From the NCBI GenBank assembly GCA_004563595.2, contig CP042461.1:1050001-1082000 (forward strand): a stretch of 32,000 bases of DNA, written 5' to 3'. The position numbers and the translations under genes are program-made. The stretch is from Candidatus Saccharimonadota bacterium (GTDB lineage Bacteria > Patescibacteriota > Gracilibacteria > BD1-5 > UBA6164). Position 1 is the stretch's first letter. Every line of letters begins with the position of its first letter. The notes below the pieces were generated by a model, which was not told the origin of the DNA, ran no database searches, and saw only the letters and a list, made by a program, of their open reading frames with translations. Below, one piece after another: positions 221-26,933 of the stretch.

Positions 221-234
221 TGAAAATAAACAAT

Positions 235-268: not shown

Positions 269-506
269 ATTTAATCAATTTCAACTTCTTATCCCTAGTC
301 AATTTCTTGATCCTGCACTCTTCTTTTGCAGCTTCTGATTTATCAGCAACTTCAACTGAGTATACAAGTTCAACTGGTCTTCTCACTCTGGTATATTTTG
401 CTGCTTTAGGAGAGTTATTATGTTCATCAACTCTTCTCTCTAATTCTGTAGTGATTCATGTATATAAACTTCCATCATTACATCTCACTATATACACATA
501 CCACAT
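267..506 (-). CDS. GIY-YIG nuclease-domain protein (UPF0213-like)
   Basis: Table-25 translation MWYVYIVRCNDGSLYTGITTELERRVDEHNNSPKAAKYTRVRRPVELVYSVEVADKSEAAKEECRIKKLTRDKKLKLIK*. This is the classic GIY..YTG..R..EH..K..YT layout. The one in-frame TGA falls on the G of YTG. Confidence 0.85.
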
Positions 507-510
507 ATTT

Positions 511-981
511 TTATACTGATAGATTTACAAATTCTGTTGTATCAATTGATAATTCTGCTTTGATTTTATGAGACTCTACTTCTTCTATATGTTGTCCAAG
601 AGTGTTCAGGAATATATCCTTCCCTTCTCCAAATGGAATTACAAGCTTTGCTTCAATATTTTCAAATATTTTTGCAGCATCTTTTGTTCATGTAATGATT
701 AATATATCCACATCTCAAAAGAATGATAAGATCTCTTCTTTTAATTCAAAGCTATCATTTGATATGATAACGATATGTTTTGTGTCCACAACAAAATGAT
801 AAAACAATTTATTTGCATACTCTTTTACCTCAAGTAACATTCATGATTTTTCATACTCTCAAGGATATGAAACATTAAAATCATCGACATTAACATCTCC
901 TGAACTTATATTAAAAGTGATATTTTTTTTATCTGAATTTGTAATATTTAGGTTTCATGCTTTGTTATAAACTTCGATCAT
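511..981 (-). CDS. MBL-fold (UlaG/COG2220-like) protein, short form without an obvious HxHxDH motif
   Basis: 156 codons, ATG 981 to TAA 511. Motifs YPGEYEKSGMLLEV, FFGDVDILIITG and AKLVIPFGEG resemble the C-terminal half of MBL-fold hydrolases. Five in-frame TGA codons. Coordinates are solid; the function is tentative. Confidence 0.6.
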
Positions 982-996
982 AGAAAACTGTTAAAA

Positions 997-1449
997 TTAA
1001 ATAAAATATGTTTTATTTCTTGCTATAATAGCTCATAAATCAAACATAACTTCCACATCTTTTATCTTTTCAATAGGAAACCATTCATATCAAACAAACC
1101 TTTCTTCCTTTTGAACATAAGGTTTTTTCTCTCAATGATACCTCACCAGAAAAAGATATACATCTTTATCTATCACGGGGGTATTTTCTAAGTATCAGGC
1201 TGTAAAAGTATAGTTTAACTTTGTAATAAACTTAATTACTTCAAGGTCTTTTTTCATTAATCAGGCTTCTTCACTAATTTCTCTTACTGCTGTATCTTTT
1301 GCTACTTCTCAATCTTCTATATGTCATTTTGGAATCACATAGATTTCTTTATTTCTTGAGTTTAACCATTTCAGTAAAAGAACCTCGATCTTACCTTCTT
1401 TTTTACGATAGACTATACCACCTGAACTCTTTTCATATATTTTTGCCAT
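997..1449 (-). CDS. NUDIX hydrolase
   Basis: MAKIYEKSSGGIVYRKKEGKIEVLLLKWLNSRNKEIYVIPKGHIEDGEVAKDTAVREISEEAGL... contains a complete Nudix box GX5EX7REUXEEXGU. The first G of the box is encoded by TGA. Confidence 0.85.
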
Positions 1450-1615
1450 AAAATTTAAAATAACTCATCTATCTAAAACTATAATTAAATATAACTCAAA
1501 AAACGAAAAATTCAAGTTCTTTTCGAAAGTCCCTCTATATTACACTTCATTTTTTGCATATATTTTTTTTATGTGATAGACTATTGTTAATAAAACAAAA
1601 ATAAAAATAAAAATT

Positions 1616-2632
1616 ATGCAAAACACACATATAAATGAAGATATTTTAAGTGATCTCGAAAACCTAATTGACTCAAATATTGACTCAACACTGGAAAATA
1701 TAAGTAAGATAGATACCCCTTACTCTCCTGAACCCCTTAATAGTTTAAATAAATCAGAAGAAGTAAAATACACTCCTATACTTATAGATTCACAAGACAC
1801 TGAAATAATTCCTGATGAAATAAAAGAAGAGAAAAAATATATAAAAAAATCTTCGAAATTTATTACTTGAATATTATTTCTATTCAAATATATGGCTACA
1901 TCAAGTCTTATATTCGCATTATTACTTGTTACAACAAACTATAGTGCTTATATAAATGTAGCAAAAAGTTATATTTTTCAAGAAGAATTAGAAAATAAAT
2001 CTGCGTGACTTATTAATTCTGTAAAAGCATCAAATATAAAAGAAAAAATTAAAACTGAAGTAGTAGAAAAAAATAGAGCTATCGAAAAAGAAAATACAAC
2101 ACCAGTTGGGAGAAATTCAATAAAAAACTTAGTAGCCCTTTCAAATAAAAATGAACTTGACCTTAACATTGAAATCACACCATATGAAAATAGAATAGTT
2201 ATTCCAAAGATTTGAAAAAATATTCCTCTCTTAGATATTACAAATAGGAAAATATCATGAGAAAATGAACTCAACGATATTTTCATGAAAGAACTTGAAA
2301 ATTGAGTAATTAGATATCCATGAAGTGCTAAACCATGAAAAGATGGGAATGCATTTATTTTTGGTCACTCGTCAAATTTCCCATGGATTAAAGGAGAATA
2401 TAATGATGTTTTTTCACTTCTTGATAAAGTACAATACGAGGATGAAATAATTGTATATTATGGTCAAAAAAAATATACATATAAAATAAGAGAAAAAAAG
2501 GTTATTACTCCTGGTGATATTTCTATTTTAAAAAGAAATAATGATAAATCAGAAATAACTCTTATGACATGTTGGCCAATTTGAACAACCCTCAATAGAC
2601 TTATAGTAACCTGAGAATTAATTGAAGAATAA
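1616..2632 (+). CDS. Sortase-family transpeptidase (membrane anchored)
   Basis: 338 aa with TGA=Gly. N-terminal acidic region and a TM segment (MATSSLIFALLLVTT). Catalytic triad context FIFGHSS, ITLMTCWPIGT (TLxTC) and NRLIVTG. The standard code stops it at 1870. Confidence 0.85.
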
Positions 2633-2655
2633 TATAATTTTAAAACTCATTTATA

Positions 2656-2925
2656 ATGATTTGATTTGAATATAAATACGTAAAAGCTATAGATATTATA
2701 AATAATATATTATTAGTTCCTAAAGATTCAGTCATAGAATATTCTATTATAACTATAATTTTTATATTTTTTTTAGTTTCTCTCTATTATATTATCCCAT
2801 TTGTTAACATATGGAGAGAGCATTTACAAAATGAAAAAGAGAAAAAAAGAAAGAAATTCCTCCTTAAGCAAATTATCCTTCAAAAAGATATGGAGGCTGA
2901 AATAGAAAAAGAATTAAATATATAA
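2656..2925 (+). CDS. Small single-pass membrane protein, hypothetical
   Basis: 89 codons, starting 23 nt after the sortase stop. Hydrophobic core YSIITIIFIFFLVSLYYIIPF followed by a Lys/Glu-rich tail. A terminator follows directly. Confidence 0.5.
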
Positions 2926-2961
2926 AAAGAACTTAGAAGTAATTATCTAAGTTCTTTTTTT
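2924..2961. terminator. Bidirectional hairpin terminator
   Basis: agaacttaga (2928..2937) pairs with tctaagttct (2946..2955), flanked by an A-run and a T-run. It overlaps the last codons of rlmE. Confidence 0.6.
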
Positions 2962-3623
2962 CATATACAAATTACGTATTCTTCATGTGATGAATCTCTA
3001 CAGGCCATCGGTTTATACATTGTCATTTTTGTAAATCTTTTTTTCACCTGCTGAGCTAAGTCATTAAAATCTTCTCATTTAAAAACTTTCAGAATCATAT
3101 CCCCTCCTGGCTTTAAAAAGCTATCACTAAACTTACAGATTTCAATATTAAGCTCAACAGAAGCATATTGATCTACATCAAATCTCCCTGTTGTATTTGG
3201 AGCAATATCAGATGTAATAACATCGAATTGATCATCTCATACAATTTCAATCACATTTTTGCTCAGTGTATCATAATCAAATATATCACACACGAGGGTT
3301 TTTACATTTGGATATGAAAAAGGTTTACATTCTTTTAAATCAACTCAAATAATTTGTTTTTCCCTTACTATATTTCTTATAGCTTGTAAAAAACTCCCTG
3401 GAGCACATCATACATCCATTACACTATGATCTGGCTGTATAAGGTCAAATCTTTCCTGAATTTCAAGAAACTTATAAATTGATCTTGCTCTATACCCTGC
3501 CTTTCTTGCTTTTTCGGAAAATTCATCATTTACTACATAGCTTCATCTTTGCACTTTCTTCTTCCTATGAAAACCTGTTTTCATAACTGTTTTTTTATTT
3601 TGAATTCTGTTTTTCTTTGCCAT
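2943..3623 (-). CDS. rlmE: FtsJ/RlmE-type 23S rRNA 2'-O-ribose methyltransferase
   Basis: 226 aa: ...GYRARSIYKFLEIQERFDLIQPDHSVMDVGCAPGSFLQ...VITSDIAPNTTG...LKPGGDMILKVFKGE. SAM-binding and K-D-K-E context typical of RlmE. Confidence 0.8.
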
Positions 3624-5101: not shown

Positions 5102-6325
5102 ATGGATTTAGACGCTGATATACAAAAACTGCCAATTAAAAAAGACTTATGAGATGTCGTTGACTATATTAATGCTCTCTTTAAAAAAGCTATTGATTAC
5201 GGAGCATCAGATATACATGTAGAACCAACTGAAGATTTTCTCCTTATCAGGTTTCGTAAAGATGGTGATTTTATGATTATTGACAAAGTTCATCCTGAAA
5301 ATATCAGTGCTATAGTAACCAGGCTCAAAGTACTATCAAAGATAAAAATTGATGAAAATAAAAAACCTCAAGATGGGAAAATTGTATATTTCTATGAAGC
5401 TGATGACATGAATGTAGATATCCGTCTCTCTACCCTTCCAACAACCTATGGTGAAAAAGTGGTTATGCGTATATTAAAACAAGATGCCTCACTTACCAAT
5501 ATTGAAGCTCTATGACTTATTGATATCAATGTAGAAAAGGTAAGAGAAGCTCTCAAAAGTAATTATTGAATTATGCTCGTAGCATGACCAACTGGGTCAG
5601 GTAAATCTACTACCCTATTTGGTATATTAAAACATTTTAATCCTCTTGCATATAATATATCCACTCTTGAAGATCCGATCGAGTATAATATTGAGTATGT
5701 AAACCAATCCCAAGTAAAACCTGAAATCTGATATACATTTTCAACTGGTCTCAGAAGTTTGGTAAGACAAGATCCTGATATTATAATGGTATGAGAAATC
5801 AGGGATAAAGAAACAGCAACCCTTGCTGTTGAAGCCGCTCTTACATGACATTTAGTTTTATCAACTATCCATACCAACTCCGCAGCAGGAACTGTGCAAA
5901 GACTTATAAATATGTGAGTTGAACCATTTCTTTTAGCATCAGCTATGAAAATGGTTATATCTCAAAGACTTTGAAAGAGGCTATGTCAAAGCTGTAAAAA
6001 AGAACATCCTCTGAAAGATTATGAAATGAAAAAAGTAAAAGACTTTCTTGCTCCAATTGTAGAAAAAGATCAATTAGAAAACCTCGTCTTTTACAAATGA
6101 GAATGATGTGATGTTTGTAGACAGACATGATATAAATGAAGATTATGAATCCATGAAGTCCTGATAGTATGAGATTTTCTTGAACCTCTCATATTAAATA
6201 AAGAGAGTGCAAATGCAATGAGAACTATCGCAATCGAAAATTGAATGATTACTATAGTCCAAGATGCATTATTTAAAGCACTCATGTGAGAAACTACTGT
6301 TGAAGAAGCTCTTAAACTAATATAA
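5102..6325 (+). CDS. pilB: Type IV pilus assembly / type II secretion ATPase (PilB/GspE family, short form)
   Basis: 407 aa. ASDIHVEP. Walker A VAGPTGSGKSTT (its first G is TGA 5585..5587). LEDPIEY, RQDPDIIMVGEIRD and GHLVLSTIHTN. Tetracysteine region CQSC...CDVC. Confidence 0.9.
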
Positions 6326-6347
6326 AATTAAATAAAAACGTGAAAAT

Positions 6348-8243
6348 ATGTTTAATATATTCAAGAAAAAGAAAATAAATACTCAGGCTGTAAAGAGTTT
6401 TAATGAAGTTGTGAAAACAATTGATATTTTTATTCGTCTTTCAGAGTGGGAAAAAGCAAGAATGGCTTTGGCTGAGATAAGAAATAAAGAAAAAAAATCT
6501 CTTGCAGATCTTATGATAAAGATTGAGAGTGAAGATAAACTTTTCAGTGAAAAAGAAGTTATCAAACAAAATAAATTTTATAAGAAAAAACTGGTCAGTC
6601 TTGATAAATTAGAAGAGACTTTGATTAAAACTGAAAAAAAATTCCATGATGATATTCAAAATCAAAAATTTAAAATCAGATTTAAGTCTATAAAAACTGA
6701 GATCGAGCTCCTAGCATGAGGGAAAAAACATACAGAAGCAATGAATCTCTTACAGAAATTCCTAGAAGAAAATAAAGAAAAAGATATTGTAATTAAATTT
6801 TTCAATAAAGAAAAGAAGATTCTTTTAAAAAAGCTTGAAAAACACAAAGGACTAGAACAAGAAAAAATCAAAAGAAATGCAAAGTCAGAAGCTATGAATC
6901 TGATATGAGAAAATGTAAACATCGAACCAAAAGAGAAAAAAAAGAAAAAAAGTTCATTTTTTAGTGAGCTTAAAGAAAAAATAAATTTTTATAAAAAAAT
7001 AAAAGAGACTATTAGAAAAAAGAAATTACTCAGTGAAATCAATATCCTCATTGACGAAGATTCAAAAGTGAAAAATGATATCGCAGCAAAAAAATTAGCA
7101 AATATACATAGGTGACTCATCAAGGAAATCACAAATGATCAAATGTTATGATATGAACTCTATGGGAAAATACTCTGAGCAGATAAAATATCATGAGACA
7201 CCTTTTGATTTAATGAAAATACATCAAAATATAACTTCTTCTTATGAGATGCCACTGGTCATGGAATTAGAGCATGATTCATAGTTACACTCCTTAGTAG
7301 ATTCTTTAATAAATATGTCGATAAAAGTAGTTTATCTGAGTTGACTTATGAGATTAACAATGGATTAAAGCAAGATTTAAAAAATAGAAATTTTATCACT
7401 TGAGTATTCTTTGAAATACTCAAAAATAAAATCGGAACCATAAATTTTGTTTGAATGTGACATGAGCCAATGCTTATATTTAGGAAGAAAGAAAATACAA
7501 TTGAAAAAGTAATTCCAGGATGACTCGCAGCTTGAATCAGAATGATTAAAAATAAAGAAGATATTAAAACCAAAGAACTCAATCTAGGTGATGAAGATAT
7601 TCTTATTATCTATAGTGATTGAATGACTGATAGCAAAAATCCTGAAGGTTCTTTCTATTGAATTGATAGATTAAAAGATAGCTTTTTCAACATAGCCTCC
7701 GGTGGTTCTGATATTAAAAATATATATGATTTCCTTATTAATGATATCCAATTATTTAGAGGCTGAAGTAGTTTTGATGATGATGTCAGTATTTTAATGA
7801 TAAAAAGAAACTTCCTCAAAGATATTGTAAGAGAACCTTCTGAATATTTAGATGATCTCTCTAAAAAAGAATGACTCAAAAGAAATGATGTCAAAAAGAT
7901 GGAATGAAAAACCAAAGAAGAAATTAATGTCATACTAGAAAGTATTAAAAAAGAAAAAGAAACAAAGAAAATCATAAAAATTCTTGAAAATCTTTATTTT
8001 ACCTGAGAGATTTTAAAATTAAAGCAAGAAGCTATCCGTTTTATCAAAGCCTGATATATTCATAAAAAAATCAATTATTACCTTAAAAAAGCAATTGATA
8101 ATGAAAAAGGTTATAAGATAGATCAAAAAAATCAAAGAATAGATAGTAAATATACCGTTCTTATGGAACTCTATAAAAAATGAGATTATAAAACAGTTAT
8201 GCAAGAAGTTGAAGATATTATTGCACAAGATTGAAATATATAA
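6348..8243 (+). CDS. SpoIIE/PP2C-family Ser/Thr phosphatase domain protein with long coiled-coil flanks
   Basis: 631 aa with TGA=Gly. Central motifs ISGDTFGF, FFLGDATGHGIRAGFI, FVGMGHEPMLIF, LGDEDILIIYSDGMTDSKNPEG and DDDVSILMIK match the SpoIIE/PPM pattern. The N- and C-terminal regions are K/E-rich heptad-like sequence. It sits 22 nt after pilB and 25 nt before pilC. Confidence 0.8.
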
Positions 8244-8268
8244 AAAATTAATTAATAATATTATAATT

Positions 8269-9483
8269 ATGTTCTGAGGTCGTTTCTATGATAAATACTG
8301 AAATTTTAACAACGATAAGTTCGTTAAGCTTTTAGAGAAAGCCAGAAATGCACAATACAAAAAGCAAAAATCAACAAAAGGTAATATGAATAAAGAAATT
8401 ACCTTATTTGATAGCGCCTCAAAAAAAGAACTTTGGCAAATGATTAACAAACTTTCTATATTTATTAATTCGTGAATTGATGTAAAATGAGCTCTTACCA
8501 TCCTCATAAAACAAACAAAAAACCCATACCTTAAAAGAATTACTATTGAAATGCAGGAAAATATTAATCATGGGATTACTATGAGTGAGACTATGGCTCA
8601 ATATCCAAAAGTATTTGACTGATTAAGTACTGCACTTATCTGAGTATGAGAAAAAACAGGGCAATTATGAAAAATTCTTGCAGAGCTTGATAAGAACCTT
8701 TTAGAGAATATTGAGCTCAAATGAAAAGTAAAATGAGCCATGATCTATCCTGCTGTTCTACTAGTATTAACTCTCTGTATGGTAATCTTTATGATGATTT
8801 TTATTGTACCAAGAATTTCAGAGAGTTTTGAAAAAGCTGGGAGTGAGCTTCCAGGTCTCACTCAGTTTGTAGTAGCTGTTTCAAATTTTTTCATTGAAGA
8901 TTGGTGAAAACTTATCATTTGATTTATTGCAACTATTTCAATATTTAGAATCATCAATTCAACATATCACTGAAAAATGTTCTTTGCTATCATGTATACA
9001 AAGCTCCCTATTTTTTGATATGTAGTGAGGCAATCAAATATAGTATATTTTATTAAATCTTTTACCATTCTTCTTGATTCTTGAGTACTTCTATTAGAAT
9101 CACTGAAAACATCAAGTAAAGTAGTACCAAATCTTGCATATAAAAAAGAGCTTATCAGAATCAAAAATGAAGTTGAAATATGACTTACCATATCAAAATC
9201 TCTCTGATTGAACCTTGATTATGAAGCAAATGTATACTTAAATAATCTCTTTCCTGAAGAATTTGCTTATGTAGTAAGTACTTGAGAAGAAACTTGAAGT
9301 TTGTCAGACTCTCTCAAAAAAGTATGAGCAAACTATAACTGAGAACTAAAAAGATATATCTGAAACCTTTCAAGTCTGATGGAACCAGTTATTATCGTTA
9401 TAGTATGATTTTTAGTTGGTACTATTGTAGTTGCCATTATGCTCCCTTTCTTCGCGATGGGTGAAATTGCAAAAAACTTATAA
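8269..9483 (+). CDS. pilC: Type IV pilus platform protein (PilC/GspF family)
   Basis: 404 aa. Two T2SS-F-like halves (…GITMSETMAQYPKVFDGLSTALIGVGEKTGQL… and …EEFAYVVSTGEETGSL…). Three TM segments. Ends TAATAA. Confidence 0.9.
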
Positions 9484-9484
9484 T

Positions 9485-9511
9485 AAAAAACTGGGTTTTC
9501 CCAGTTTTTTT
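9485..9511 (+). terminator. Intrinsic terminator after pilC
   Basis: aaaaactggg-tttt-cccagttttttt. Confidence 0.7.
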
Positions 9512-9618
9512 GTGTATATGGTTTAAATTCATCCCCTTTTGACTATTCTCAAAAATATCCCAATCCTATAAATAATTAGTATTTTTCGCATAAAGTCCAC
9601 TGAAATGCTGCAAAAAAA

Positions 9619-9647
9619 TTGTATTTAAGGTAAAATTAAGGTACACT
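9619..9647 (+). promoter_or_regulatory. Candidate sigma70-like promoter for the pilin gene
   Basis: ttgtat (9619..9624), a 17-nt spacer, then tacact (9642..9647), about 75 nt upstream of the pilin ATG. In AT-rich DNA such matches arise by chance. Confidence 0.25.
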
Positions 9648-9720
9648 CTACAAGTCTTTAATAAAAGGCAACTAATTTTAAAATTTATTTTGTATTTTAT
9701 TTTCTTAACATAACATATTT

Positions 9721-10467
9721 ATGAGAAATACAAAACAAGCATTCACGTTAGTGGAACTTATCGTAGTTATTACTATTTTAGCTATACTTGGTACTATAGC
9801 CTTTATATCTTTACAAGGGTATTCAGCTGATGCTAGAAACTCTAAAAGAGTAAATGACCTTGGGAATCTTGCTGATTCTGTAAACATTAAGTCTACACAA
9901 GGATCATCTCTATTAAGTTTTGTAACTTCTGATACAAACACTACTCTTACTAATGCTAGTGTTGCTGGTACAGGAACTCTTGCTGCTAATTATAGTGCAG
10001 GTTTCCCTAACTATATCGCTCTTGGAGTAAAAGAAGAAGATTTTAAAGATCCAAATGGTCCAGAATATAGAGTTGCTGCAACTACTAATAAAAATGGTCA
10101 ATTTGAATTTGCTTCTTCTATTGAAAATGGTGCAGGACTTGATACTGCTAAAATAATCGGTAACTATAACAATAGAGGTGTAGCTGCTGGTGATACTGCA
10201 ACTATTACTTCTTCTGGTACTCTTTCAGTTACTCTTGCTGATACTGATATCGGTAAGATAGTAAGAGGAGATACTGTTACTGCTGGTGGTACTGCTGCTA
10301 TAGTAGTTACAAAAGTATCATCTGATGGTACAACTCTTACTCTTAACGCTGCTCATGGTGTAGGTACAGGTGTACTATTATCTGCTGCTGAATCAACTAG
10401 TATAATTGCTTCTACAACTGGTGTAACAACTCCAATTGAAGCTGATACTGAAACAGTTCCTTATTAA
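9721..10467 (+). CDS. pilA: Type IV pilin (prepilin with N-terminal methylation/cleavage motif)
   Basis: MRNTKQA-FTLVELIVVITILAILGTIAFISLQGY is the class III signal peptide plus conserved hydrophobic alpha-1 helix with Glu5. Position -1 is Ala rather than Gly. Thr/Gly/Ala-rich globular part. 248 codons with no TGA at all. Confidence 0.9.
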   Translation: MRNTKQAFTLVELIVVITILAILGTIAFISLQGYSADARNSKRVNDLGNLADSVNIKSTQGSSLLSFVTSDTNTTLTNASVAGTGTLAANYSAGFPNYIALGVKEEDFKDPNGPEYRVAATTNKNGQFEFASSIENGAGLDTAKIIGNYNNRGVAAGDTATITSSGTLSVTLADTDIGKIVRGDTVTAGGTAAIVVTKVSSDGTTLTLNAAHGVGTGVLLSAAESTSIIASTTGVTTPIEADTETVPY

Positions 10468-10492
10468 TAAATTTCTCGTAAATTTAAATTAT

Positions 10493-10526
10493 AAAAAGAC
10501 TTTCGCAAGAAAGTCTTTTTATTTTG
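10493..10526 (+). terminator. Intrinsic terminator after pilin
   Basis: aaaaagactttc-gcaa-gaaagtcttttt followed by attttg. Confidence 0.7.
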
Positions 10527-10563
10527 TGTTATTTTTGAAGAGGTCTCACTATCTACCTCATTC

Positions 10564-10602
10564 AAAAAAAAGGTATCACATATATTATGTGGTACCTTTT
10601 TT
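10564..10602 (-). terminator. Intrinsic terminator after pilT
   Basis: aaggtatcacata pairs with tatgtggtacctt (one G:U). There is a T-run on the minus strand, immediately 3' of the pilT stop. Confidence 0.65.
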
Positions 10603-10605
10603 CTT

Positions 10606-11688
10606 CTATGAAATATTTTCCTTAATCAACTTCGGATTGTTTGAGTACTTCAATCATTCCTCTTGAGTAATATATCAACTATTAATAAAATTAATAATAT
10701 CTGTTTCTAATAATTGCATCCCTTCTCTTGATCACGTTTGTATCACTGAAGGAATTTGATGAAGATCATTTTCTCTTATCAAGTTTGAAATCGCTGAATT
10801 TTTTATCAGTATTTCTTTTGCTAACTTTAATCATGTCCCATCTTCTGTCTTCAAAAGTCTTTGAGAAAAAACAGCGACAAGTGAATCTGCAAGTTGTAAT
10901 CTAATCTGATTTTTATCTTCTGCATTAAAACTATCGAGTATACGTGTTACCGTTTGATAAGCAGAACGAGTATGAAGTGTAGAAAATACCAAATGTCATG
11001 TTTCAGCAAGCCTCAGTGCCATCTCCATTTCTTCTTTTGATCTCATCTCTCCAAAAAGAATAACATGAGGGTTTTGTCTCATCGCCCCCATTAGTGCACC
11101 TTCATATGACAGAACATCTCTTCATATTTCTTTGTGCTCAATAATAGACTTTTTATGTTTGTGAATATATTCTATTGGATCTTCAATGGTAATAATATGT
11201 TTACTTGTATTTGCATTGATATGGTCAATCATCGCAGCAAGTGTAGTTGTCTTCCCTGAACCTGTAGGTCCTGTTACCAAGATAAGTCACTGCCCTAATT
11301 TTGTAACATCCTCATATACACTCGTAAGTCATAGATCCTTAGTACTTGGTATTTTTAATGTTAGAAGTCTTAACACCACCATATAATTTCACATTTGAAA
11401 AGAGATATTACACCTTAATCTTCTTTCTCAAAATGAAAAAGAAAAATCTAGATTTCTATCTGTGATAAGCTTTTTATATTGATCTTCTGTGATAAGTGAT
11501 TGCATAAATTCATAGGTGTCTGTAGCTGTTAAAAGCTCAATTCCATCATCTATTTTTACAATATCTCATCCTATTTTTATTGCAGGATAGGTTCCTACTG
11601 TAATATACATATCTGACCCTTCGTTGTCGATCATTACTTGAAGAAGTTGATCTTTGAATATATGATCTGGTTTTAAAATCTCATTCAT
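10606..11688 (-). CDS. pilT: Type IV pilus retraction ATPase (PilT family)
   Basis: 360 aa. GSDMYITVG. Walker [42 protein letters not shown] and [10 protein letters not shown]. Ends with TAG at 10606..10608. Confidence 0.9.
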
Positions 11689-16083: not shown

Positions 16084-16887
16084 TTAGTTATTATTTAAAG
16101 TATTTCACCACTCAAGATAAGTATCTACATCATAATCTTTATGTAATCCAGGGTTTAAAATTGGAGAATAAAAATTATATGTTCATATGTATTTATCATT
16201 CGTCAATTTTTCTGAATTTTTATAAAAAATTATTTCTCTATGTCAATTAGGTGAGACAAATTTTCTCTCTATTCATCATACATTATAATCTTGATGAAAA
16301 AAGGCTCAAAGATATGCCGATCAACGAAATTTAGGTTCCTCCCATAATTCATCTTTAGCATGATCAATAGATGTAGGTAAATTAATATTATATCTATTCC
16401 TATCATAATGTAATTGTTTAGCTATTTTTTCTGCAGGTAATAACTCATCATATGCAATTTTTCTTGTTTCCTGAAGTCTCTGTATTAAATTATTTTTACC
16501 TGTTATCATTGGGTATTTATAAGCTTCTGTAATTTTTTGGTTAATTGACTTAAATATAAGTTTTTTTTCTAAATAATCATCATAAGCTTTCACAAATTCC
16601 TTAGCAGCTAACCCCATTCTATCAACAAACCCAACTGGATTATTCCCAACATACGCATACAAATTCACATCATCACTTATATCTATAGGATCTCTACTTA
16701 TAAATCTCCCCAGTTGTGGATTGTAATATCTTGCTCTGTTGTAGTAGAGCTTGAGTTCTTTTTCATATTCATGATCTGTATACAGTCTTGTGTTTCAAAT
16801 CGCTCATTTTTCATTGTATCTTTTGAAAAAATAAAACCAAGACAGTTCTAATATCTTAGTTTTATTTAGAATATTAAGCTGTAATAT
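16084..16887 (-). CDS. Orphan Rhs C-terminal cassette (core-end fragment + variable toxin domain), no canonical start codon
   Basis: The frame is open from the TAA at 16888..16890 down to TAA 16084..16086. It reads ...IGNTRLYTDHEYEKELKLYYNRARYYNPQLGRFISRDPIDISDDVNLYAYVGNNPVGFVDRMGL followed by a ~174-aa CT domain. The first in-frame ATG is the M of DRMGL, so this is probably a silent or displaced cassette. Confidence 0.7.
16567..16801 (-). repeat. 235-bp direct repeat (Rhs core-end), copy in the orphan cassette
   Basis: Colinear with 17715..17949 at a constant offset of 1148 bp. The central part (…aaccccattctatcaacaaaccc…ctccccagttgtggattgtaatatcttgctctgttgtagta…) is nearly identical. Confidence 0.85.
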
Positions 16888-17243: not shown

Positions 17244-20200
17244 TTAAAATCAGGTTTTTCTTCATAATAATGAAGTATTATCATTATATGAATTTCACCA
17301 TTCATAATAAGGACTTATATCATATTTACTATGTAATATAGGCTCATCCACAGGACTAAAAAAATTATAAGTTCATATATCTTCATCATCAGTTTCTAAA
17401 TACCCTCTGTGAGTATATACAACTTCTTGATGTCAATCAAAAGATACAAACTTTTTATTTGGTACATGCAACGGTGCAGTTTGTTGATGATATAATGCTT
17501 TTCAATAAGATAATTGATTCCATTTATCTTTATCTAAATTTTTTAATTCATATGATTGATTTAAAGTGTTAAAATCATTTCTATTATAATGCAAATCTCT
17601 TGCTAACTTTTGTTTTCTATTAAATTCATTTGTTAATTGTTGCTTTTTATATGAATTCAAAAATAAAAATCAAAGATCTTTACCTCATCAAAAATTATAT
17701 ATTTTTGATTTTATTTCCAAATAATCATCATAAGCCTTCACAAACGCCTTAGCAGCTAACCCCATTCTATCAACAAACCCAACAGGATTCCCTCCAACAT
17801 AAGCATACAAATTCACATCATCACTAATATCAATCGGATCTCTACTTATAAATCTCCCCAGTTGTGGATTGTAATATCTTGCTCTGTTGTAGTAAAGCTT
17901 TAATCCCCTATCATATTCTCTTCCAGTATACAATCTCGTGTTTCAAATCTTGGACTTCTTGAGTCTGGTTATTTTTCCATTCTCTTCTTTTGTATACGGT
18001 TTTCAAAATACATCATATGCGTACTCCTCAACTATACTACCAGTTTCATCTGTGATTGCAATAATACTTCATAGGTGGTCTTTTTGGTAGTAATAGGTAT
18101 TGGTTTCTACGTAACTTTCTTTGATCTTTCTGGTCTTTGCCTTACCATTTGCGTTTATATATTCTTCTTCTATCTTTCTTGTCTTGTAAGCTATTATATT
18201 CATAGAAATGATGTCATCTATTGAGTTTCAATAAATAAACTCTTTTGAATTCTTTAGCTTGTCTTTTTTAGAGTAGTTTTCTTCTCAGATGATGTCTTGG
18301 TTTGAGTAATAGTATTTTCTATAACTTCCGTTATTTAATTTCTTTTCGATTCTTCTTCATAGGACATCATAGCTTATTTCTACTATTCTTTTGATCTGCT
18401 CTATTTCTTCTGTTTCAATATCATTTACCTTTTTGTAGATATTTTTTTCTACTTTAATTAATCTATTTTTGTAATCATAGCTGTAGATGTATTGTCTTTT
18501 ATTATTCAGATTATTTCAAATGAGATTTCCATTATTATCATAGATGAGTCTTCATTCAAGTTCTATTTCTTCTGTTTCTTCGAGGCTTTCCTCAATAGCG
18601 TCTGATTCTTCTTCTATGAATTCTGCTTCTGTAATAATTTCAGTGCTAATTATTTCTATTGTTCCCGTTCCTGTTGGAGTTTCTATTGTGCCTGTACTGG
18701 TTTCTTCTTCTATTTCTTCTATGTCTACATAGATTGATCTATCAAGGTATTGGTTCAGATTATTTGTAGCATAAGCAAATTTCTTTTCTCTTTGAGTTCC
18801 GTTTTTTGTGAGTTTTGTTAGGATTTCTCTGCTTCTGTTTCACATCAAATCATATTCAAAACTTTCTGATGATTTGTTTTTGTGTTTTGTTTGGTAGTTT
18901 GTAGTGGTAATTCTGTCTTGAGTATCATAGCTATATGAATCTACTCCGTTTGAAACGATATTTCATTGAGTGTTGTATGTGTAGTTATAGTTTCAGAGTG
19001 AACTTAATCTTGAGAGAGCATCATAACTGTAATTTGTTACTACTCAATTTCAGAGTGTTTTACTGAGTTGTGTGAAACTATCATATGTATAGTTTGCTAT
19101 ATTTTGGTCATTTCTTGTAATACTTGTTCATCTGTTTGCTCCATCATATGTATAGTTTGTAGATATGGCTTCTACTCCCTCTCCTGCAGGAGAGGGTTGG
19201 GGTGAGGTTATACTTGTTCTATTTCATGAAATGTCATGTGTATATGTTATCGTTTTATCTGAATTTGTTTCATTTACGAGTCTTCATAAACTATCATATT
19301 CAAATCATAGATCATTTCACTCATTATCAGTGGCACTTATGAGTCTTCATAATGCATCGTATTCATATATTTCACTGGTTACTCATCATACTCATACTCA
19401 TGTTTGAATATCTCTTTGTTTGAGTCTGTTGAGTCTATCATAATTGTTTACAACAACGGTTCCATTTGGATCTGTTGTTTTGTTGAGGTTTCATGATATA
19501 TCATATTCATATCTCATTACTTGTTGATCTGGATATGTGATTGTAACAAGTTGTCAGAGGTCATTATAATCATAGAGAGTAATATTGTCATTTGCATCTG
19601 TTACTTTTTCAAGATTTCAATTGATATCATAACTATAATTTATTGTTCTTCATTCATGAGATTCTGATAATATATTTCAACTATAATCATATGTATAATG
19701 GGTTATTCATCCATCTTTATCAGTTTTTGTGATAACTTGATTGAGTTTATTATATGCATAGCCCTCAAAATCTCCATTATTATCTATTTCTTTTATGAGC
19801 CTTGAATCTGTATCATATTCATAACTCGTTCCTATAGTCTTCCCTGTTGTTCAAACTATTTTTTTCTCTGTTATTTTATCATTTTTATTATAACTGTGGG
19901 TGATAATATTACCGAGTGTATCTGTAGCTGTTGTTAGTCTATTGAGAGTATCATAACCGTACAGTGTAGAGTTCCCTTTTGGGTCTACTGTTTCTATAAT
20001 ATTTCATATGGCATCATATTTTGTTTTTGTTGTTATTGTTTCATTTATGGCTAAGAGTATTTTTTTATTTTCAATCACTCTTCATAATATATCAAATGTG
20101 TTTTGCTCTTTTAATACTAAAGTATTATTTCCATCAGAAACTCGTGCTTCTGTTATTCCTCATAATGCATCATACTCTAACTGAGTAGTTGTAAAGTGTG

Positions 20201-23200
20201 GATCTATTTGTTTCTCGATCCTATCAAAGAGATCATATTCAAATTTTGTCTGCGTCTCGTTTGGATGAATTTGAGTGATGAGTCTATTATTTATGTCATA
20301 GACATATTTTGTAATGATATTTTGATTGATTCCTGCCTCCGTAGGAATGACTGTTTTTTTAATAATAAATCATGCTTCATTATATTCAAACTTCTGAGTG
20401 GCATTATTTCCATCAGTTATTTCGGTAATATTTGAATTTTTATCATACTGAGTCACTGTTATTTTTTGCCTACTTGCATCTATGTCTGTTGTGATTTTTG
20501 TAGGATTATCTAAAATGTCATATTCATAACTACTGTCTATAGTTTCAGTTCCTGATAATATTATTTTCTCGTTTGTCTTTTTATTCAGTTTATTATATAC
20601 ATATTCACTTACGATTCCCTCTGGAGTGGTAAGCTTTTTAAGCATATTAAAATCATCATAACTGAGATTTGAAATATTTCATTCTGCATCTGTTATACTG
20701 GTAATATTTCACTTATTGTCATAGCTATAGTTTGTAGCTATTTCCTCTCATGAAAGAGACTTAACAGTTTTTAATAAATTTCCATTCTGATACTCAAAAC
20801 TTGTTTCGGATCCATTTCCATCAATCTTTTTTATAAGTTCTCAGAGTGTGTTGTATTCAAACTCTTCTATAACTATTATAGTATTTCCATCATAATCTTG
20901 CACTCAAAGTACTTCTGTTTTTGTGATGTTTCCATTACTATCGAGTTCAAAGTTTGTAACTCTTCCATTTGGAGCAATAGCTTGAGTTATTTTATTAAAG
21001 ACGGGGTGGTAGGTATAGCTATATACTATATCTTCTGCTGAGTCAGCTGACTGAACATCTTGTTTCATTCTCTTTTCTATGAGGTTTGATCTCGTATCAT
21101 AGTCATATGTATATCCATTTCAAAGTGGTAAGATTTCTTTTGATATATAGTTATTATTATCATATTCATAAGTGTATATACTGTCTCAAGTATATTTTTT
21201 CACTATCTTCCCAATGGTATTTCAGTTTGAATCATATGTATAGATGACATTGTTTCCTTCCCTATCTAAGACACTGTTTTGAGTTATTTGATTCTCTGCA
21301 TCAAGAGTATAGGTATATCAAATAGTTCCTTCTCAAAACTTTTGTGTTGCAACTCTATCATCTCCATTATATGTATTTTCTACATAGATGTTATTTTCTG
21401 AATCTATAAGTTGTAGTATATTATGAGACGATTCAAAAGTATCTCACATCGTATATGTGAAACTAATTTCTTTTGAGCTTATAGTATTCGTAGTTGTAAT
21501 AGTTTTTAAATCAAATTCATCTCCATCAGTTTCTCCTGTTCAGAAATATATAAACTCAACGGTATCTCCGTTAAAATCAGTTATATCTTTGATTCTCGAA
21601 TGACCATAATATGTCAGATTATATACTCTCGAGTTTGTATCTATTATTTGCGTTAATGCATTGTTTGCATCATACATAAAACTCATAGTATTTGAGAAAT
21701 TATCTGTGATACTTTGTAGTCTTAGGTTATTATTAAAACTGAGAGTTGTAGTGTTATTTAAGTTCACAGAGTATGTTCCATTTGCTAAGCTGAGGGTTCA
21801 TTTAAGAGTCTCATTTCCTAAAAATCAAGTTCATGATTTTATAAATTGGAATACTCCAAGCTTCCCATTGTGGTAGTTTATATTTCCATCATTGTCTTCA
21901 ACTAAAAATTGATTGTAATTATAATCAAAATTATTTCAGAGGGGTCCGTTATAATAGGATTGATTTTGGTAGTTTATTTTAAACTCAAATGGAAATCAAA
22001 CAGACTTGTATTGCATAAGAGTGTTATCATATACAAATTCTCATGTGTTGAGGTTTACAGGATCTCATGCTGTTGCTTCTGTATTTATTTCTTGGGATAC
22101 TGTGTTATTCGTACTCTGAGTACTTGTTTCTTGGATCGGTCAGATAAAAATCTCTTCTCATGATGGAATGTTATTCTGAACGAAAATATTTCCATTATTT
22201 TCTACATAATTAGAGTATGAAAAATCTGGAGTAAAATTCTCATTTATTACATTCACTTGATAAGTAGTCGTAGCATCTGATAGATTTCCATCTGCATAGA
22301 CTCATCTTACATACCAGTTATATGTTCCTGTAGGAAGTGAAGCTATTTCAAGTTCATAATAACGCTCTACTACTTGTATAGCACTATCATCCTTAAGATA
22401 GAAATTATATGATACGGCATTTTCTATGCTATCCCAAATAAGGTAGGTATATCATTGTTTGTAATCTATGTTTAAAACATCTCATCATGTGCTTACTTGT
22501 TCCACTTGTTGTACTATTTCTTCGATAACCGTAGCATCAACATTTTCGATAGTTTGATCTACTATTACATCTCAGCTAATAGTTGTTGTTGTGATATCTA
22601 TTTCATAGTTTGATGAAATAATCACGATGTCTGCTTGTATATTTCCAGATACTGTTTGCGTAATTACAGCAGGTCAACCACCACCCGTATTACTTGGTGT
22701 ACTCGGAGCTAAGTTCACTGTTTTTACAACTACTTTATTTACTGTAGTATCTCCTATTGTTTGTGTCGTAATACTTTGCGTTACTTCTAGATTTTCTATT
22801 TCAATTACTATTGGTGCTGTATCCTGAGTAATCGTTTTAATAGTAATACTTTCTCAGCTTCATTCTCAATTTGAGGATACTATTGCTCCATGTCAGCTAA
22901 TTCATCAAAGAGATATTTGTTTTGTTCCATCTACATATAATGTATACCCGTTTAAATAAATAACTCCATCATAAACAAAGTCTCCATCTATAGTAATGTT
23001 ACTTTGTAAGTTCATGTCTGATGATATTGGTGTCGATCAATTGATAGTTCTCGCTTGGGTACCATTTACATATAACTGAGTAACATCAAAGCTTCAATTA
23101 TTTTCTATATTTCATTTTGCTGTTATTTTTGAAGTTCATCCTGATGAAGTGAGTATAGTTCAATTATTTACTACATTCCCTTCTACTGTTATATTTGCCC

Positions 23201-26200
23201 CATTTAAAAGATTATATTCTTCTTGATTAGCTATAAGTAAATCTCAGTTTATAGTAATTGGGTCTGGGAGAGTATTTTTATTTAAAGTAAGAGTTGCTAT
23301 ATTTGAATCAGCGATTCCATCATTTACTTTTGCATAAATAACTACTGCTCCATCTTCTAGGTTTGAGAGATCTAAATTGAAATTAAATTCTCAATTCTCC
23401 ATTGGAGTAGATCATGTGGAACTGAAATTTATATAATTTGTTCCATCAAGTGAATAAGAAAAAGTGAGAGTTTGATCTGCATCAAGATCTTTAATTCAAG
23501 CGATTTTGAAATTAATAAATTCTTGGTTTATCAGGGTTATAGAAGTTTGTGTAGAAGTGAGGCTTCCTATAAGTGGAGCCACTTGATCGAGTCAAATTCA
23601 TTGAATACATCATGGGACGTTGATACATTTAGCTTCTGTCCAATCAGAATCGGATAAAATACCATCTCATTTTACTCTCCAGTAAAGATTCGTTCAAGTT
23701 TCTTTGATCGCCGTTGGAAGTAAATATTGAGTTGAGTTATTGACACTTATATCTTCTTCTCATGTGATTGAAAGGATGTAGTCAGAGTATGAATCTATTG
23801 GAGCCCATTTTAGGTAGGTGTTTGTAGAGATGTTTCCGTTTATGTTGTCTAATGCTCCATACAAATATGCTTGCGATACATAACTCAATGAACCATTATT
23901 AATTACATCTCATTTAAAATGAACATAAAATAATTTTGCAGCATTGTTGTTGTATCATCAAATAATACCATTATTCTCTATACCTCCATCTACTGTTAAC
24001 GTATAATAATTATACGTTAATTCTGTTTTCCTTAATATTCCATTTCAGGTAAGTACTACATCTCAGTTTAATATAGTGTTTCACATAATTATTGATGTTC
24101 CATCTAATGTTAATCTGTCAAATGTTGATGTATTTACTATATTTCATTTTGCCAGTACTTTTCTTCATGTGAATCCATTCAAATTATACAACACTTCTGT
24201 ATTCTCTATATTTGTTTCTGTATTATAAATACTTCATACTTTGATTATTTCTCCATCTCAGTTAATATTTGAACTTAGTATTTTTCATACATACGGATAG
24301 TTCAAATATATATCCTTTGCCCCATCTACATACAATGTATAATTCTGTAAATATGTTGTAAATTGAAAATTGATGTCTCATAATAGTTCAACATCTCAGT
24401 TTAAATAAAGATTTGGTTTGAAATTATCAGATGAAGTAATAGTTCTGACTCCATCTGTTTCAGTATCTTGAATATAGGTGTTTCATGACCATCATGAATC
24501 TGATCCATTTGTAACATCTCAATACAAATATGCTTGCGATATATAACTTAATGAACCATTATTCAGTACATCTCATTTAAAATGAATATAAAATAATTTT
24601 GCAGCATTGTTGTTGTATCATCAAATAATACCATTATTCTCTACATTCCCATTCACTGTTAATGTATAATAATTATACGTTGATTCTGTTTTTCTCAATA
24701 TTCCACTTCAGGTAACTACTACATCTCAATTTAAAAGAGTATTTCATGTAATTTTTGATAACCCATCTAATGCTAATATATCAAATGTTGATGTATTAAC
24801 GATATTTCATTTTGCTAGTACTTTTCTTCATGTAAAGCCATTTAAATTAGATCATACTTCTATATTCTCTATATTTGTTTCTACATTGTAAATGCTTCAT
24901 ACTTTGATTGCTTCTCCATCTCAATTTGTATTTGAACTCAATACTTTTCATACATATGGGTAGTTCAAATATATATTCCTCGTTCCATCTACATACAAGG
25001 TATGGTTTTGTAAATATGTTGTAAACTGAAAATCTATGTCTCAGAGTAATTCAACGTCTCAACTTAAATAAAGGTTTGGTTTGAAATTTGGTGATGAGGT
25101 AATAGTTCTAACTCCATCTGTTTCAGTATCTTGAATGTAGGTATTTCACGACCACGATGAATCAACTCAGTTTGTAACATCTCAATATAAATATGCTTGT
25201 GATATATAACTCAATGAACCATTATTCACTACATTTCATTTAAAATGAACATAAAATAACTTTGCAGCATTGTTGTTGTATCATCAAATAATACCATTAT
25301 TCTCTATACCTCCATCTACTGTTAATGTGTAATAGTTGTACGTTGATTCTGTTTTTCTCAATATTCCACTTCAAGTAATTATTACATCTCAATTTAATAT
25401 AGTGTTTCATGTAATAATTGATGCACCATCCAATGTTAATCTATCAAATATTGATGTATTAACAATATTTCATTTTGCTGTTACATCTCTTCATGTAAAT
25501 CAATTCAGATTTAATCATACTTCTGTATTTTCCATGTTTGTTTCTACATTGTAGATACTTCATACTTTGATAGTCTCTCCATCTCAGTTTCCATTTGAAC
25601 TTAGTATTTTTCACACATACGGATAGTTTAAATATATATTCTTCGTTCCATCTACAAACAATGTATAATTTTGTAAATATGTTGTGAATTGAAAATCTAT
25701 ATCTCATAACAGTTCAACATCTCAGTTTAAATAGAGATTTGGTTTGAAATTTTCTGATGAAGTAATGGTTCTGACTCCATTTGTTTCAGTATCTTGAATA
25801 TAGGTGTTTCATAACCATGATGAACCTGATCCATTTGTAACATCTCAATACAAATGTGCCTGACTAACATAACTCAAACTCCCATTATTAATTATATCTC
25901 ACTTGAAATGAACATAAAATAACTTTGCAGCATTGTTGTTGTATCATCAAATAACCCCATTATTCTCTACATCCCCATTCACTGTTAATGTATAATAGTT
26001 GTACGTTGATTCTGTTTTTCTCAATATTCCACTTCAAGTAATTATTACATCTCAATTTAATGTAGTATTTCATGTGATTTTTGATAACCCATTTAATGTT
26101 AATGTATCAAATGTTGATGTATTTACTATATTTCATTTTGATGATACCTTTTTTCATGTGAATCCATTCAAATTGTACAATATTTCTGTATTCTCTATGT

Positions 26201-26933
26201 TTGTCTCCACATTATATATATTTCAAACTTTGATTGATTCTCCATCTCAGTTAGTATTTGATGATAATATTTTTCATACATACGGATAGTTCAAATATAT
26301 ATTCTTTGTCCCATCTACATATAAGGTATGGTTTTGTAAATATGTTGTGAATTGAAAATCTATATCTCATAACAGTTCAACATCTCAGTTTAAATAGAGA
26401 TTTGGTTTGAAATTTTCTGATGAAGTAATGGTTCTGACTCCATTTGTTTCAGTATCTTGAATATAGGTGTTTCATAACCATGATGAACCTGATCCATTTG
26501 TAAGATCTCAATACAAATGTACCTGACTAACATAATTTAAACTCCCATTATTAATTACATCTCACTTGAAATGGACGTAAAATAACTTTGCAGCATTATT
26601 ATTATATCATCATATAATCCCATTATTCTCTACATCCCCATTTACTATTAATGTATAATAATTGTACGTTGATTCTGTTTTCCTCAATATACCATTTCAC
26701 GTAATACTCACCCCTCCCACCGTAGTATTTCATACAATATTAACTAATCAATTCACCTCAACAACATCATCAACATCTGGAACGACTCCTTCCACCCAAG
26801 TTGATACACTATTCCAATTCCCTCAAGCTGACGTTGAATGGATAGTTGGCTCTAATACAGCCCAAGCGCTCGCAAAACTAAACGCAAAAAATAAAGACAT
26901 TATCACAAATATCCTCAAAACAATCCTCCTCAT
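17244..26933 (-). CDS. Giant Sec-dependent Rhs/YD-repeat polymorphic toxin (WapA-like), 3,229 codons
   Basis: ATG 26931..26933 and TAA 17244..17246 share a frame, and all track fragments with YD sequence (17688, 20370, 21540) share it too. No TAA/TAG appeared in the parts translated by hand (26933-25800, 23880-23340, 22450-17244). Signal peptide MRRIVLRIFVIMSLFFAFSFASAWA. 221-aa tandem repeats. FN3/Ig-like modules. DPVNLNTGEF, many YD repeats, and core end ...YYNPQLGRFISRDP...NPVGFVDRMGL plus a ~170-aa CT domain. Confidence 0.85.
17715..17949 (-). repeat. 235-bp direct repeat (Rhs core-end), copy in the main rhs gene
   Basis: See 16567..16801. It encodes IGNTRLYTGREYD...NPVGFVDRMGLAAKAFVKAYDDYLE. 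Confidence 0.85.
23810..26745 (-). repeat. In-frame tandem repeat array, period 663 bp (221 codons), ~4.4 copies, inside rhs
   Basis: The same landmark (antisense ttgtacgtt(g/a)attctgtttt) recurs at 24010, 24673, 25336, 25999 and 26662. 25681..25840 is identical to 26344..26503 over 160 nt. It encodes GN/GD-rich beta-helix-like units (ITGNGILRKTESTYNYYTLxVNGDVENNG...). Confidence 0.9.

Follow-up and report, generated by a model that had tools for sequence, protein, structure and literature searches.

A probable Sec-exported, WapA-like Rhs polymorphic-toxin system with an unnamed toxin domain in a code-25 bacterium of the Gracilibacteria type

In Photorhabdus laumondii Rhs1, the Asp of a D-PVxxxTGE signature is required for N-terminal cleavage; near the other end of its shell the protein carries two DPLGL motifs, of which the second provides the catalytic Asp, and the toxin begins with Ala (PMC8636562). 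The WapA loci of Streptococcus suis offer an experimental analogue of orphan toxin/immunity arrangements, and WapA export in that species needs a sortase, which is encoded next to wapA (PMC12704120). Our literature searches turned up no account of Rhs toxins, or of polymorphic toxins, from Gracilibacteria, Absconditabacteria or Patescibacteria; a study of the predator Vampirococcus speaks of giant surface proteins but not of Rhs (PMC8080830). Here we describe a giant Rhs gene and the genes next to it in a 32,000-nt stretch of contig CP042461.1 (assembly GCA_004563595.2, positions 1,050,001 to 1,082,000; hereafter the window), from a bacterium of the candidate phyla radiation (CPR) that uses genetic code 25. 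We consider it highly probable, from sequence, that the locus is a complete Sec-exported, WapA-like Rhs polymorphic-toxin system. The 3,229-residue precursor consists of a predicted leader, an N-terminal region of ~1,600 residues that is repetitive and predicted to be all-beta, a YD-repeat shell between two plugs, and a tip of 170 residues. Coordinates of all features are collected in Table 1.

The gene runs from an ATG to a TAA over 9,690 nt and 3,229 sense codons. A preliminary description of the locus had proposed such a single minus-strand open reading frame (ORF) with TGA as a sense codon, and inspection of the whole frame agrees: it contains 163 in-frame TGA codons and no TAA or TAG. Because the longest TGA-free stretch is 102 codons, translation with table 11 yields fragments only, and the gene is invisible. 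Among the Gly codons of the gene, 163 of 296 are TGA. Within the toxin tip, TGA codes the G of DGH, GTYN and WGN, columns in which Gly is invariant or nearly so among members of the family that use the standard code. Since TGA occupies Gly columns conserved in standard-code homologues, we read it here as glycine (table 25) and not as Trp or stop. The recognisable genes of the window all need TGA as a sense codon and are readable under code 25, with 9-27 in-frame TGA in each of FtsZ, NusA, PilB/C/T, OLD, M28, the sortase and the Na/Ca exchanger. G+C content is ~28%, and in such DNA a promoter and terminator scan was uninformative, giving matches at background level (93 against 89.8 expected and 2 against 2.4).

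The gene had been called hidden by recoding, which is accurate for table 11, but the JGI record (metagenome 3300030037, contig Ga0239576_1000037, 413,421 bp) already holds a 3,218-aa gene call with RHS/YD-shell matches. The JGI protein for the neighbouring orphan gene (P0002) carries Trp at TGA. P0002 corresponds to the orphan ORF of this window and has W wherever TGA codes Gly, and P0002-P0009 are among the public code-25 genes translated with TGA as Trp. The signature of this mistranslation appears in 37 of the 153 best matches to the toxin family and places Trp in conserved Gly columns, so that profiles built from such sequences are distorted. There is a practical warning here: table-11 calls miss genes of this kind entirely, and with table 4, which the source record used, Trp takes the place of Gly.

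An Rhs/YD shell had been proposed from motifs, and significant profile matches now support it (RHS_repeat PF05593, 3.1e-80; YD_repeat_2x TIGR01643, 2.6e-59; RHS_core NF041261, 7e-52); strict YxYD motifs number 19. The best solved relatives of the shell are the Rhs cocoons 8h8a (2.9e-56), 7q97, 8qja, Tse15 and Tse5 and, more remotely, teneurin-like proteins and TccC/YenC. In its N-terminal plug, GD1624-PVNLNTGE is by sequence the autocleavage signature D-PVxxxTGE; the preliminary description had placed DPVNLNTGEF correctly (22035..22064) as the entry to the shell and had missed its meaning for autocleavage. At the other end, the core aligns residue for residue with solved Rhs cores that end at the cleavage site (…IDPFGL in 8qja). 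Asp3032 (DPIDI) and Asp3055 (DRMGL) are 23 residues apart, with 18 residues between D3032-PIDI and D3055-RMGL3059/A3060, a layout in agreement with the two DPLGL motifs and catalytic Asp of Rhs1. The core end NPVGFVDRMGL reads PxxxxD(R)xGL, Arg replacing the Pro of DPxGL. The earlier coordinates of its DRMGL (17757..17771) were exact, its assignment as a canonical core end accords with the TIGR03696 match, and the ~170-residue variable C-terminal domain reported behind it is the tip delimited here. As far as sequence can tell, the defining features of an Rhs polymorphic toxin are all present, the immunity gene as a candidate, and with Arg for Pro in DPxGL. The shell is interrupted ~260 residues ahead of the cleavage site by an acidic insertion, and a related code-25 Rhs gene (L005, 3136-5292) has a longer insertion in its shell, rich in Gly, Ser, Glu and Thr.

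Whereas the giant gene was rightly recognised in the earlier work, that description ended at its stop codon and overlooked what follows, a candidate immunity gene and an orphan toxin/immunity cassette. Immunity candidate 1 has three to four hydrophobic membrane-spanning segments by hydropathy and is 45% identical to the 119-aa protein encoded right after the toxin homologue P0001 in a Gracilibacteria metagenome-assembled genome (MAG). Behind it, the orphan cassette begins with a 242-nt handle that is 88% identical to positions 17709..17949 of the main gene; its frame encodes GNTRLYT…YYNRARYYNPQLGRFISRDP…VDRMGL, the last ~64 residues of an Rhs core, and continues into a toxin of the same family as the main tip (34% identity). 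Because the first possible start codon, a GTG, lies downstream of the first catalytic Asp, the cassette cannot make a shell. Immunity candidate 2, which follows the orphan toxin, is 27% identical to candidate 1. Orphan C-terminal toxin/immunity cassettes also occur in the related code-25 contigs L003, L005 and L006, and turnover of toxin tips seems to be active in the lineage. Both L005 and L006 also hold Rhs ends; in L005 there are several cassettes with unrelated tips, each then followed by a membrane or anchored protein, and L006 has two cassettes whose toxins are of the family found in the window.

Assemblies are often broken or wrongly joined at Rhs genes and tandem repeats, and both relatives from genome collections end at contig edges; in principle the gene could be chimeric through mis-assembly across repeats, a pseudogene in decay, or a teneurin-like adhesin that is not toxic. 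We regard this as very improbable. The frame is unbroken over 9.7 kb (the chance of zero TAA/TAG over 3,229 codons, computed from base composition, is ~1e-100), the repeats have diverged to 84-89% identity, which is enough to assemble, and the contig extends over 413 kb. Furthermore, catalytic and structural motifs are all intact, and in other MAGs the toxin is conserved together with the tightly spaced candidate immunity gene.

Table 1. Features of the Rhs locus and of its surroundings (nucleotide positions in the window)
Feature	Residues	Nucleotides	Strand	Basis or content
Giant Rhs gene	1-3229	17244..26933	-	ATG to TAA
Predicted Sec-type signal peptide	1-24	26862..26933	-	MRRIVLRIFVIMSLFFAFSFASA/WA; read from sequence
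Conserved N-terminal head	25-75	26709..26861	-	…HSTSAGGNWNSVSTWVEGVVPDVDDVVEVNG…; homologue comparison
Tandem 221-aa repeats ("stalk"), ~4.3 copies	79-1036	23826..26699	-	repeat search
Middle region	1037-1618	22080..23825	-	two W…Y…YxWxV(K/R)G modules, Ig-like stretch, one degenerate stalk-repeat copy
Rhs/YD-repeat shell	1619-3059	17757..22079	-	profile matches
N-terminal plug, DUF6531	1623-1690	21864..22067	-	Pfam 5.7e-10; includes D1624-PVNLNTGE
Acidic low-complexity insertion in shell (E/T/I-rich)	2735-2800	18534..18731	-	read from sequence
Rhs-associated core / aspartyl-protease plug	2973-3059	17757..18017	-	TIGR03696 7.1e-22; ends D3055-RMGL3059/A3060
Predicted toxin tip (170 aa)	3060-3229	17247..17756	-	directly after cleavage motif
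Immunity candidate 1, multi-pass membrane protein	117 aa	16874..17227	-	starts 16 nt past toxin stop
Orphan Rhs core-end and toxin cassette, without ATG		16084..16801	-	repeat search and translation
Orphan handle		16561..16801		
Orphan toxin		16087..16608		
Immunity candidate 2, multi-pass membrane protein	116 aa	15727..16077	-	starts 6 nt past orphan toxin stop
OLD-family nuclease gene	545 aa	13926-15563	-	AAA_15/AAA_21 ATPase and OLD-like TOPRIM
Secreted protein with sorting-signal-like C terminus	286 aa	11799-12659	-	
Type IV pilus cluster		5102-11688		PilB, PilC, pilin, PilT
Pilin gene		9721-10467		
Sortase gene		1616-2632	+	

The N-terminal half opens with a predicted leader made up of an MRR basic n-region, a hydrophobic core (Kyte-Doolittle segment at residues 1-27) and ASA before the predicted cut ahead of WA. 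The Sec signal peptide of the preliminary description is thus retained as a prediction made by eye and hydropathy, and equivalent leaders are present in homologues. The head that follows (…HSTSAGGNWNSVSTWVEGVVPDVDD…) also stands behind a signal peptide in homologues that bear the labels Gracilibacteria, Thiomargarita and Bacteroidales and in an ENA metagenome protein that bears none, and it recurs in the Rhs protein of the related locus L003; S, GGNW, TW, G, P, V and G are invariant in it. Next come tandem repeats with a period of 221 residues (663 nt), starting at residues 79, 300, 521, 742 and 963, so that the ~4.4 copies counted earlier agree with the five starts and ~4.3 copies observed here. 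The copies are 84-89% identical at the DNA level, the first 66%; Tandem Repeats Finder was blank for this region, the 663-nt period being beyond its 500-nt limit.

Structural labels previously given to this half fared less well. Neither the stalk repeats nor the putative FN3/Ig modules give a Pfam or NCBIfam match above threshold. In the middle region the best Pfam matches are sub-threshold, with Ig-like families at E 0.07-0.16, which leaves the FN3/Ig modules unsupported, and Fil_haemagg at E 0.04 (15 bits, where the cut-off is 21.5). The stalk was modelled with AlphaFold2 (AF2) on the closest homologue, P0011, which is 50% identical to the window protein in the stalk. That model is of low confidence (mean pLDDT 55, confident only at about residues 35-150) and predicts short beta-strands throughout; its Foldseek list consists mostly of beta-helix proteins, yet every match has E>0.6. 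The beta-helix label therefore does not stand as an assignment, and a beta-solenoid stalk is a reasonable guess from the model.

The same architecture recurs in the L003 Rhs protein (code 25, 25% GC), which has the leader, head, repeat, YL.W..ID.YSDYILS…YWRVKG module and GDPVNLNTGEF shell in the same order, with ~1.5 stalk repeats, and is 40% identical to the window protein in the stalk and 42% in the shell. The module in its fuller form, YL.W..ID.YSDYILS…YWRVKG…C.NV.GC, is kept in L003 and in P0012. Judged from these sequences, the layout is that of a lineage family in which stalk length, that is, repeat copy number, varies between relatives.

The tip has no match in Pfam (E<=1; nothing significant at E<=10 for 40 family members), NCBIfam, PHROGs or PDB sequences, and its model has no significant fold match in the PDB by Foldseek. 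A word-indexed search found one relative and a three-sequence profile ten; the closest is P0001, a partial Rhs protein from a Gracilibacteria MAG with 59% identity, and the database label on the relatives is [quoted passage not shown]. With a ten-sequence profile against 1.84 billion representatives, the family grew to 1,306 representative proteins at E<=1e-3 (509 at E<=1e-10). Its core domain is ~120 residues long and C-terminal in 132 of the 153 best matches. Among 28 carriers sampled, 10 have RHS repeats, 5 DUF7211 and 4 eCIS_core/DUF4157, and MafB and others also occur. Nearly invariant are H3115, R3118, N3119, H3149, K3161, E3170, T3188-Y-N3190, H3201, D3205 and G3213-N3214, and the AF2 model of the closest tip homologue (pLDDT 88, pTM 0.84) predicts a helical hairpin followed by a small alpha/beta core. 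The tip looks like an enzyme domain with an invariant His/Arg/His/Lys/Glu/His/Asp set.

Several known toxin types were considered for the tip and rejected, as neither sequence nor fold matched: ADP-ribosyltransferase, phospholipase D (HxK…D), M23/LAS peptidase (HxxxD…HxH), colicin M, TelC/Lipocone and pore-former. Short proteins that open with a DUF7211 motif (HYGVKGMKWGVRRW) bear the same toxin domain on metagenomic and IMG/VR contigs (L029, L031-L033, L038, L065-L068). On contigs with a viral classification such toxin-like genes stand one after another, and this arrangement suggests that phages carry a series of polymorphic toxins.

Genes downstream of family members give an indication of where the tip acts. 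In the code-25 subfamily, all seven cassettes (two in the window, two in L006 and one each in L001, L003 and L009) have a gene for a multi-pass membrane protein of 113-177 aa located 6-30 nt 3' of the toxin. For standard-code members, we fetched 55 metagenomic and 4 viral loci with two subfamily probes and counted the 43 loci in which an ORF of 80 aa or more lies no further than 250 nt downstream. The next gene encodes an ankyrin-repeat protein with an N-terminal signal, lipobox or anchor at 15 of these, a small multi-pass membrane protein at 8, another protein with an N-terminal signal or anchor at 11, and an ankyrin protein with no anchor seen at 1; at 4 it is the next toxin gene, and 4 are unclassifiable. 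Ankyrin repeats were confirmed by Pfam in all three partner proteins tested. Exported or membrane-embedded proteins thus account for 34 of the 39 non-toxin partners, which argues for the envelope as the target of the tip. For Lipocone toxins, transmembrane or lipoprotein immunity has been taken to imply periplasmic or membrane action of the toxin (PMC12419801). By this analogy the tip most likely acts outside the cytoplasm, on the envelope, where a membrane lipid, a lipid-linked precursor or a wall polymer may be its target. The analysis brings to light a widespread toxin domain that Pfam, NCBIfam and PHROGs lack, and the localisation of its partners points to the envelope.

On the model of solved Rhs and TcC proteins, we propose that after Sec export the shell would enclose the tip and the protein would cut itself at both ends, the pieces remaining together. 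The N-terminal stalk would hold or present the loaded cocoon at the cell surface, and the tip would be released onto a neighbouring cell. As the partner genes suggest, it would work there outside the cytoplasm, on the membrane or the cell wall, and the small, predicted four-helix membrane protein encoded immediately downstream (candidate 1) would protect the producer. With a tip that acts on the envelope, a producer that has no type VI secretion system (T6SS) would not need to drive its cargo across the cytoplasmic membrane of the target. The start-less orphan cassette may be a stored alternative warhead that swaps with the current tip by recombination through the 242-nt handle, and its immunity gene could meanwhile still guard against neighbours that deploy that variant.

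Several observations weigh against this interpretation. The second cleavage motif is DRMGL and not DPxGL, the signal peptide was assigned by eye and hydropathy only, and the partner survey relied on simple hydropathy and lipobox rules with only two subfamily probes. How the protein stays on the cell is a further difficulty, for Pfam and NCBIfam recognise no wall-binding or anchoring domain in the stalk and no CWB2 or LysM domain anywhere in the protein, even at E<=1-10, and an LPxTG-like signal is likewise absent from it. These absences would suit a diffusible toxin, a loaded cocoon shed in the manner of a bacteriocin with contact not needed, and N-terminal autocleavage at D1624 would free shell and toxin from the stalk. 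However, the three fragments of studied Rhs proteins stay associated after cleavage (PMC8636562), S. suis WapA was located to the wall fraction and was absent from the supernatant (PMC12704120), and a large conserved stalk would be pointless on a shed toxin. We consider shedding unlikely.

Two more of these opposing observations concern the tip itself. The conserved His/His/Lys set would equally suit a metal-independent RNase, the invariant H, H, K, E and D fitting many nuclease active sites, and some family members lie inside eCIS-core multi-toxin proteins of ~3,000 aa beside cytoplasm-acting modules, the AHH nuclease and the TNT NADase. The tip could accordingly be imagined as an enzyme of the cytoplasm, for example a His/His/Lys RNase, with the membrane protein blocking its entry instead of binding it. 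The 34 exported or membrane-embedded partners speak against this, among them lipoprotein ankyrin proteins whose binding domain would be outside the cytoplasm, and the tip has no similarity to any nuclease family or fold. We find a cytoplasmic target rather improbable and retain envelope action as the preferred reading.

The preliminary description proposed a candidate weapon for host attack or competition. In the case of host attack, an epibiotic or predatory CPR cell would breach the envelope of its bacterial host rather than compete with related strains. Among code-25 CPR relatives there are predators whose giant surface proteins are thought to mediate attachment to the host (PMC8080830); a tip acting on the envelope would suit host lysis, and a long stalk of variable length could bridge the gap between cells. 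On the other hand, tight coupling to candidate cognate immunity genes, the orphan cassette and the tip arrays in relatives are hallmarks of strain-level competition, and toxins directed at prey or host usually have no immunity gene (framework cited in PMC12419801). The two roles are not mutually exclusive. Host attack is thus a possibility that we hold to be speculative and less probable; the immunity genes and orphan cassette signal self-protection and competition between strains, though they are compatible with it.

A weak lead on the ancestry of the tip comes from searches whose results are all below significance. For the tip model, Foldseek ranks the AMOP domain of human isthmin-1 first (9c6t; E 0.46, probability 0.77, 105 columns, 21% identity). 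A 40-member family profile against the PDB gave 9c6t as its sole match (E 0.18), aligning GTYNf…H…DVlPY with GTPNL…H…DVLPW, and one family member reaches Pfam AMOP (PF03782) at E 0.2 in the co-linear region. Subfamily profiles gave E 0.9 or nothing and did not robustly reproduce the ISM1 match. The fold of AMOP is distinct and its biochemistry is not known (PMC12000326), and our literature search found no paper linking it to toxins. Each of the three independent pointers alone is noise, and their convergence makes homology possible, though rather unlikely. We tentatively raise the idea, which we think doubtful, that the tip represents a large unnamed superfamily of envelope-acting toxin domains, with no fewer than 1,300 representative clusters and with Rhs, MafB, eCIS-core and phage-borne DUF7211 proteins as scaffolds, and that it is the bacterial counterpart of metazoan AMOP (isthmin, MUC4, SUSD2). 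If true, AMOP would be another animal extracellular signalling or adhesion domain derived from a polymorphic-toxin tip, as has been argued for Wnt, Hedgehog-HINT and teneurin, and a site common to both, perhaps for catalysis or ligand binding, would be marked by the conserved GT.N…H…D(V)xP(W/Y) motif.

A Na/Ca exchanger gene lies upstream of the giant gene. On the 3' side, the cassettes are followed by an OLD-family ATPase/TOPRIM gene, an M28 peptidase and the 286-aa secreted protein with a sorting-signal-like C terminus; PilT, pilin, PilC, a SpoIIE-type phosphatase and PilB lie further on, and the sortase much further. A tie of the toxin to the pilus and sortase genes, suggested in the preliminary description, is not borne out. 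These genes are 5-15 kb from the giant gene, behind the OLD nuclease, the M28 peptidase and one more gene, all unrelated, on mixed strands; the only sortase of the window is ~14.6 kb from the 3' end of the giant gene and not in an operon with it, and the giant protein has no LPxTG-like signal. Moreover, the cassette of the closest relative (L001) is followed by MscL and a ribosomal-protein operon.

Some of these neighbours deserve mention in their own right. The OLD-family nuclease gene is located directly past the orphan immunity gene, and its position beside the Rhs locus suggests a small conflict or defence island. The 286-aa secreted protein has no Pfam match, and its gene has no TGA codons; its C terminus, with SPQTGTETG, a hydrophobic stretch and RKKFQK, resembles a sortase sorting signal. 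With a sortase gene ~9 kb away, it is plausible that this protein, and not Rhs, is the sortase substrate in the window. In the type IV pilus cluster, a 631-aa SpoIIE-type PP2C phosphatase with a long coiled or charged N terminus is encoded between PilB and PilC. The pilin gene, unlike its neighbours, has zero TGA codons.

In conclusion, what is new at this locus would be an unnamed, widespread, envelope-directed toxin domain and an unnamed repeat stalk, the Rhs system itself being of the known WapA-like type. Our results indicate that full Rhs systems, complete with candidate immunity genes and orphan cassettes, are present in code-25 CPR bacteria of the Gracilibacteria type, a pattern repeated in at least five other contigs. 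Such systems in epibionts with reduced genomes would imply toxin-mediated antagonism through plain Sec export.

Among the closest known systems is WapA of Bacillus subtilis and S. suis, a Sec-exported Rhs toxin of monoderm bacteria, and the WapA/Rhs layout invoked in the preliminary description is an apt comparison. Like WapA, the protein has a (predicted) signal peptide instead of PAAR, exceeds 3,000 aa, and combines a YD shell and a PxxxxD..GL core end with a polymorphic C-terminal toxin and, directly downstream, an immunity gene, here a candidate; truncated orphan core-end/toxin/immunity cassettes are also shared (PMC12704120). Unlike WapA, it has no LysM/CWB2-type domain and carries the unnamed head and 221-aa repeat stalk instead; no cognate sortase is encoded next to it, the organism is a CPR bacterium with code 25, and the tip belongs to an unnamed family with an integral-membrane candidate immunity protein.

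The shell is homologous (E 1e-29 to 1e-56 against solved structures) to those of T6SS Rhs effectors, namely P. laumondii Rhs1/Tre23, Pseudomonas protegens RhsA, Pseudomonas aeruginosa Tse5 and Acinetobacter baumannii Tse15. Common to both are an N-terminal plug with the D-PVxxxTGE signature and a C-terminal aspartyl-protease plug with two Asp motifs and a predicted cut after GL. As in Rhs1, the toxin would begin with Ala; as with Tse5, the partner is a membrane immunity protein (again a candidate), although the tip is polar and enzyme-like and not a hydrophobic pore-former. In contrast to the T6SS effectors, the protein would be exported by its predicted signal peptide. A Pfam scan of the whole protein revealed no PAAR/prePAAR, VgrG, two-partner secretion (TPS) or LXG domain, and the window contains no vgrG, Eag chaperone or T6SS genes.

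The core end also aligns with TccC2/TccC3, YenC2 and teneurin-like proteins (E 1e-6 to 1e-11), and by analogy the logic of encapsulation and autoproteolysis would be that of the TcB-TcC cocoon and the teneurins. Unlike Tc toxins, the locus has no TcB half, TcA partner, SpvB or beta-propeller domain, and no eukaryotic target is implied; conversely, Tc toxins have no immunity genes and no orphan cassette, whereas the locus has an orphan cassette and candidate immunity genes. With CdiA/CdiB it has in common a long repetitive stalk, predicted here to be extracellular, that would present a toxin of polymorphic type at the C terminus, and also orphan modules and, downstream of the toxin, an immunity gene (here a candidate). 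It differs from them in having no TPS domain, CdiB or VENN/pretoxin motif, with Fil_haemagg below threshold, and in that its toxin would be caged in an Rhs shell. Having neither PAAR nor a TPS domain nor a TcB half, the locus is, on the sequence, not a member of the T6SS, TPS or Tc systems, and it would work in the manner of WapA.

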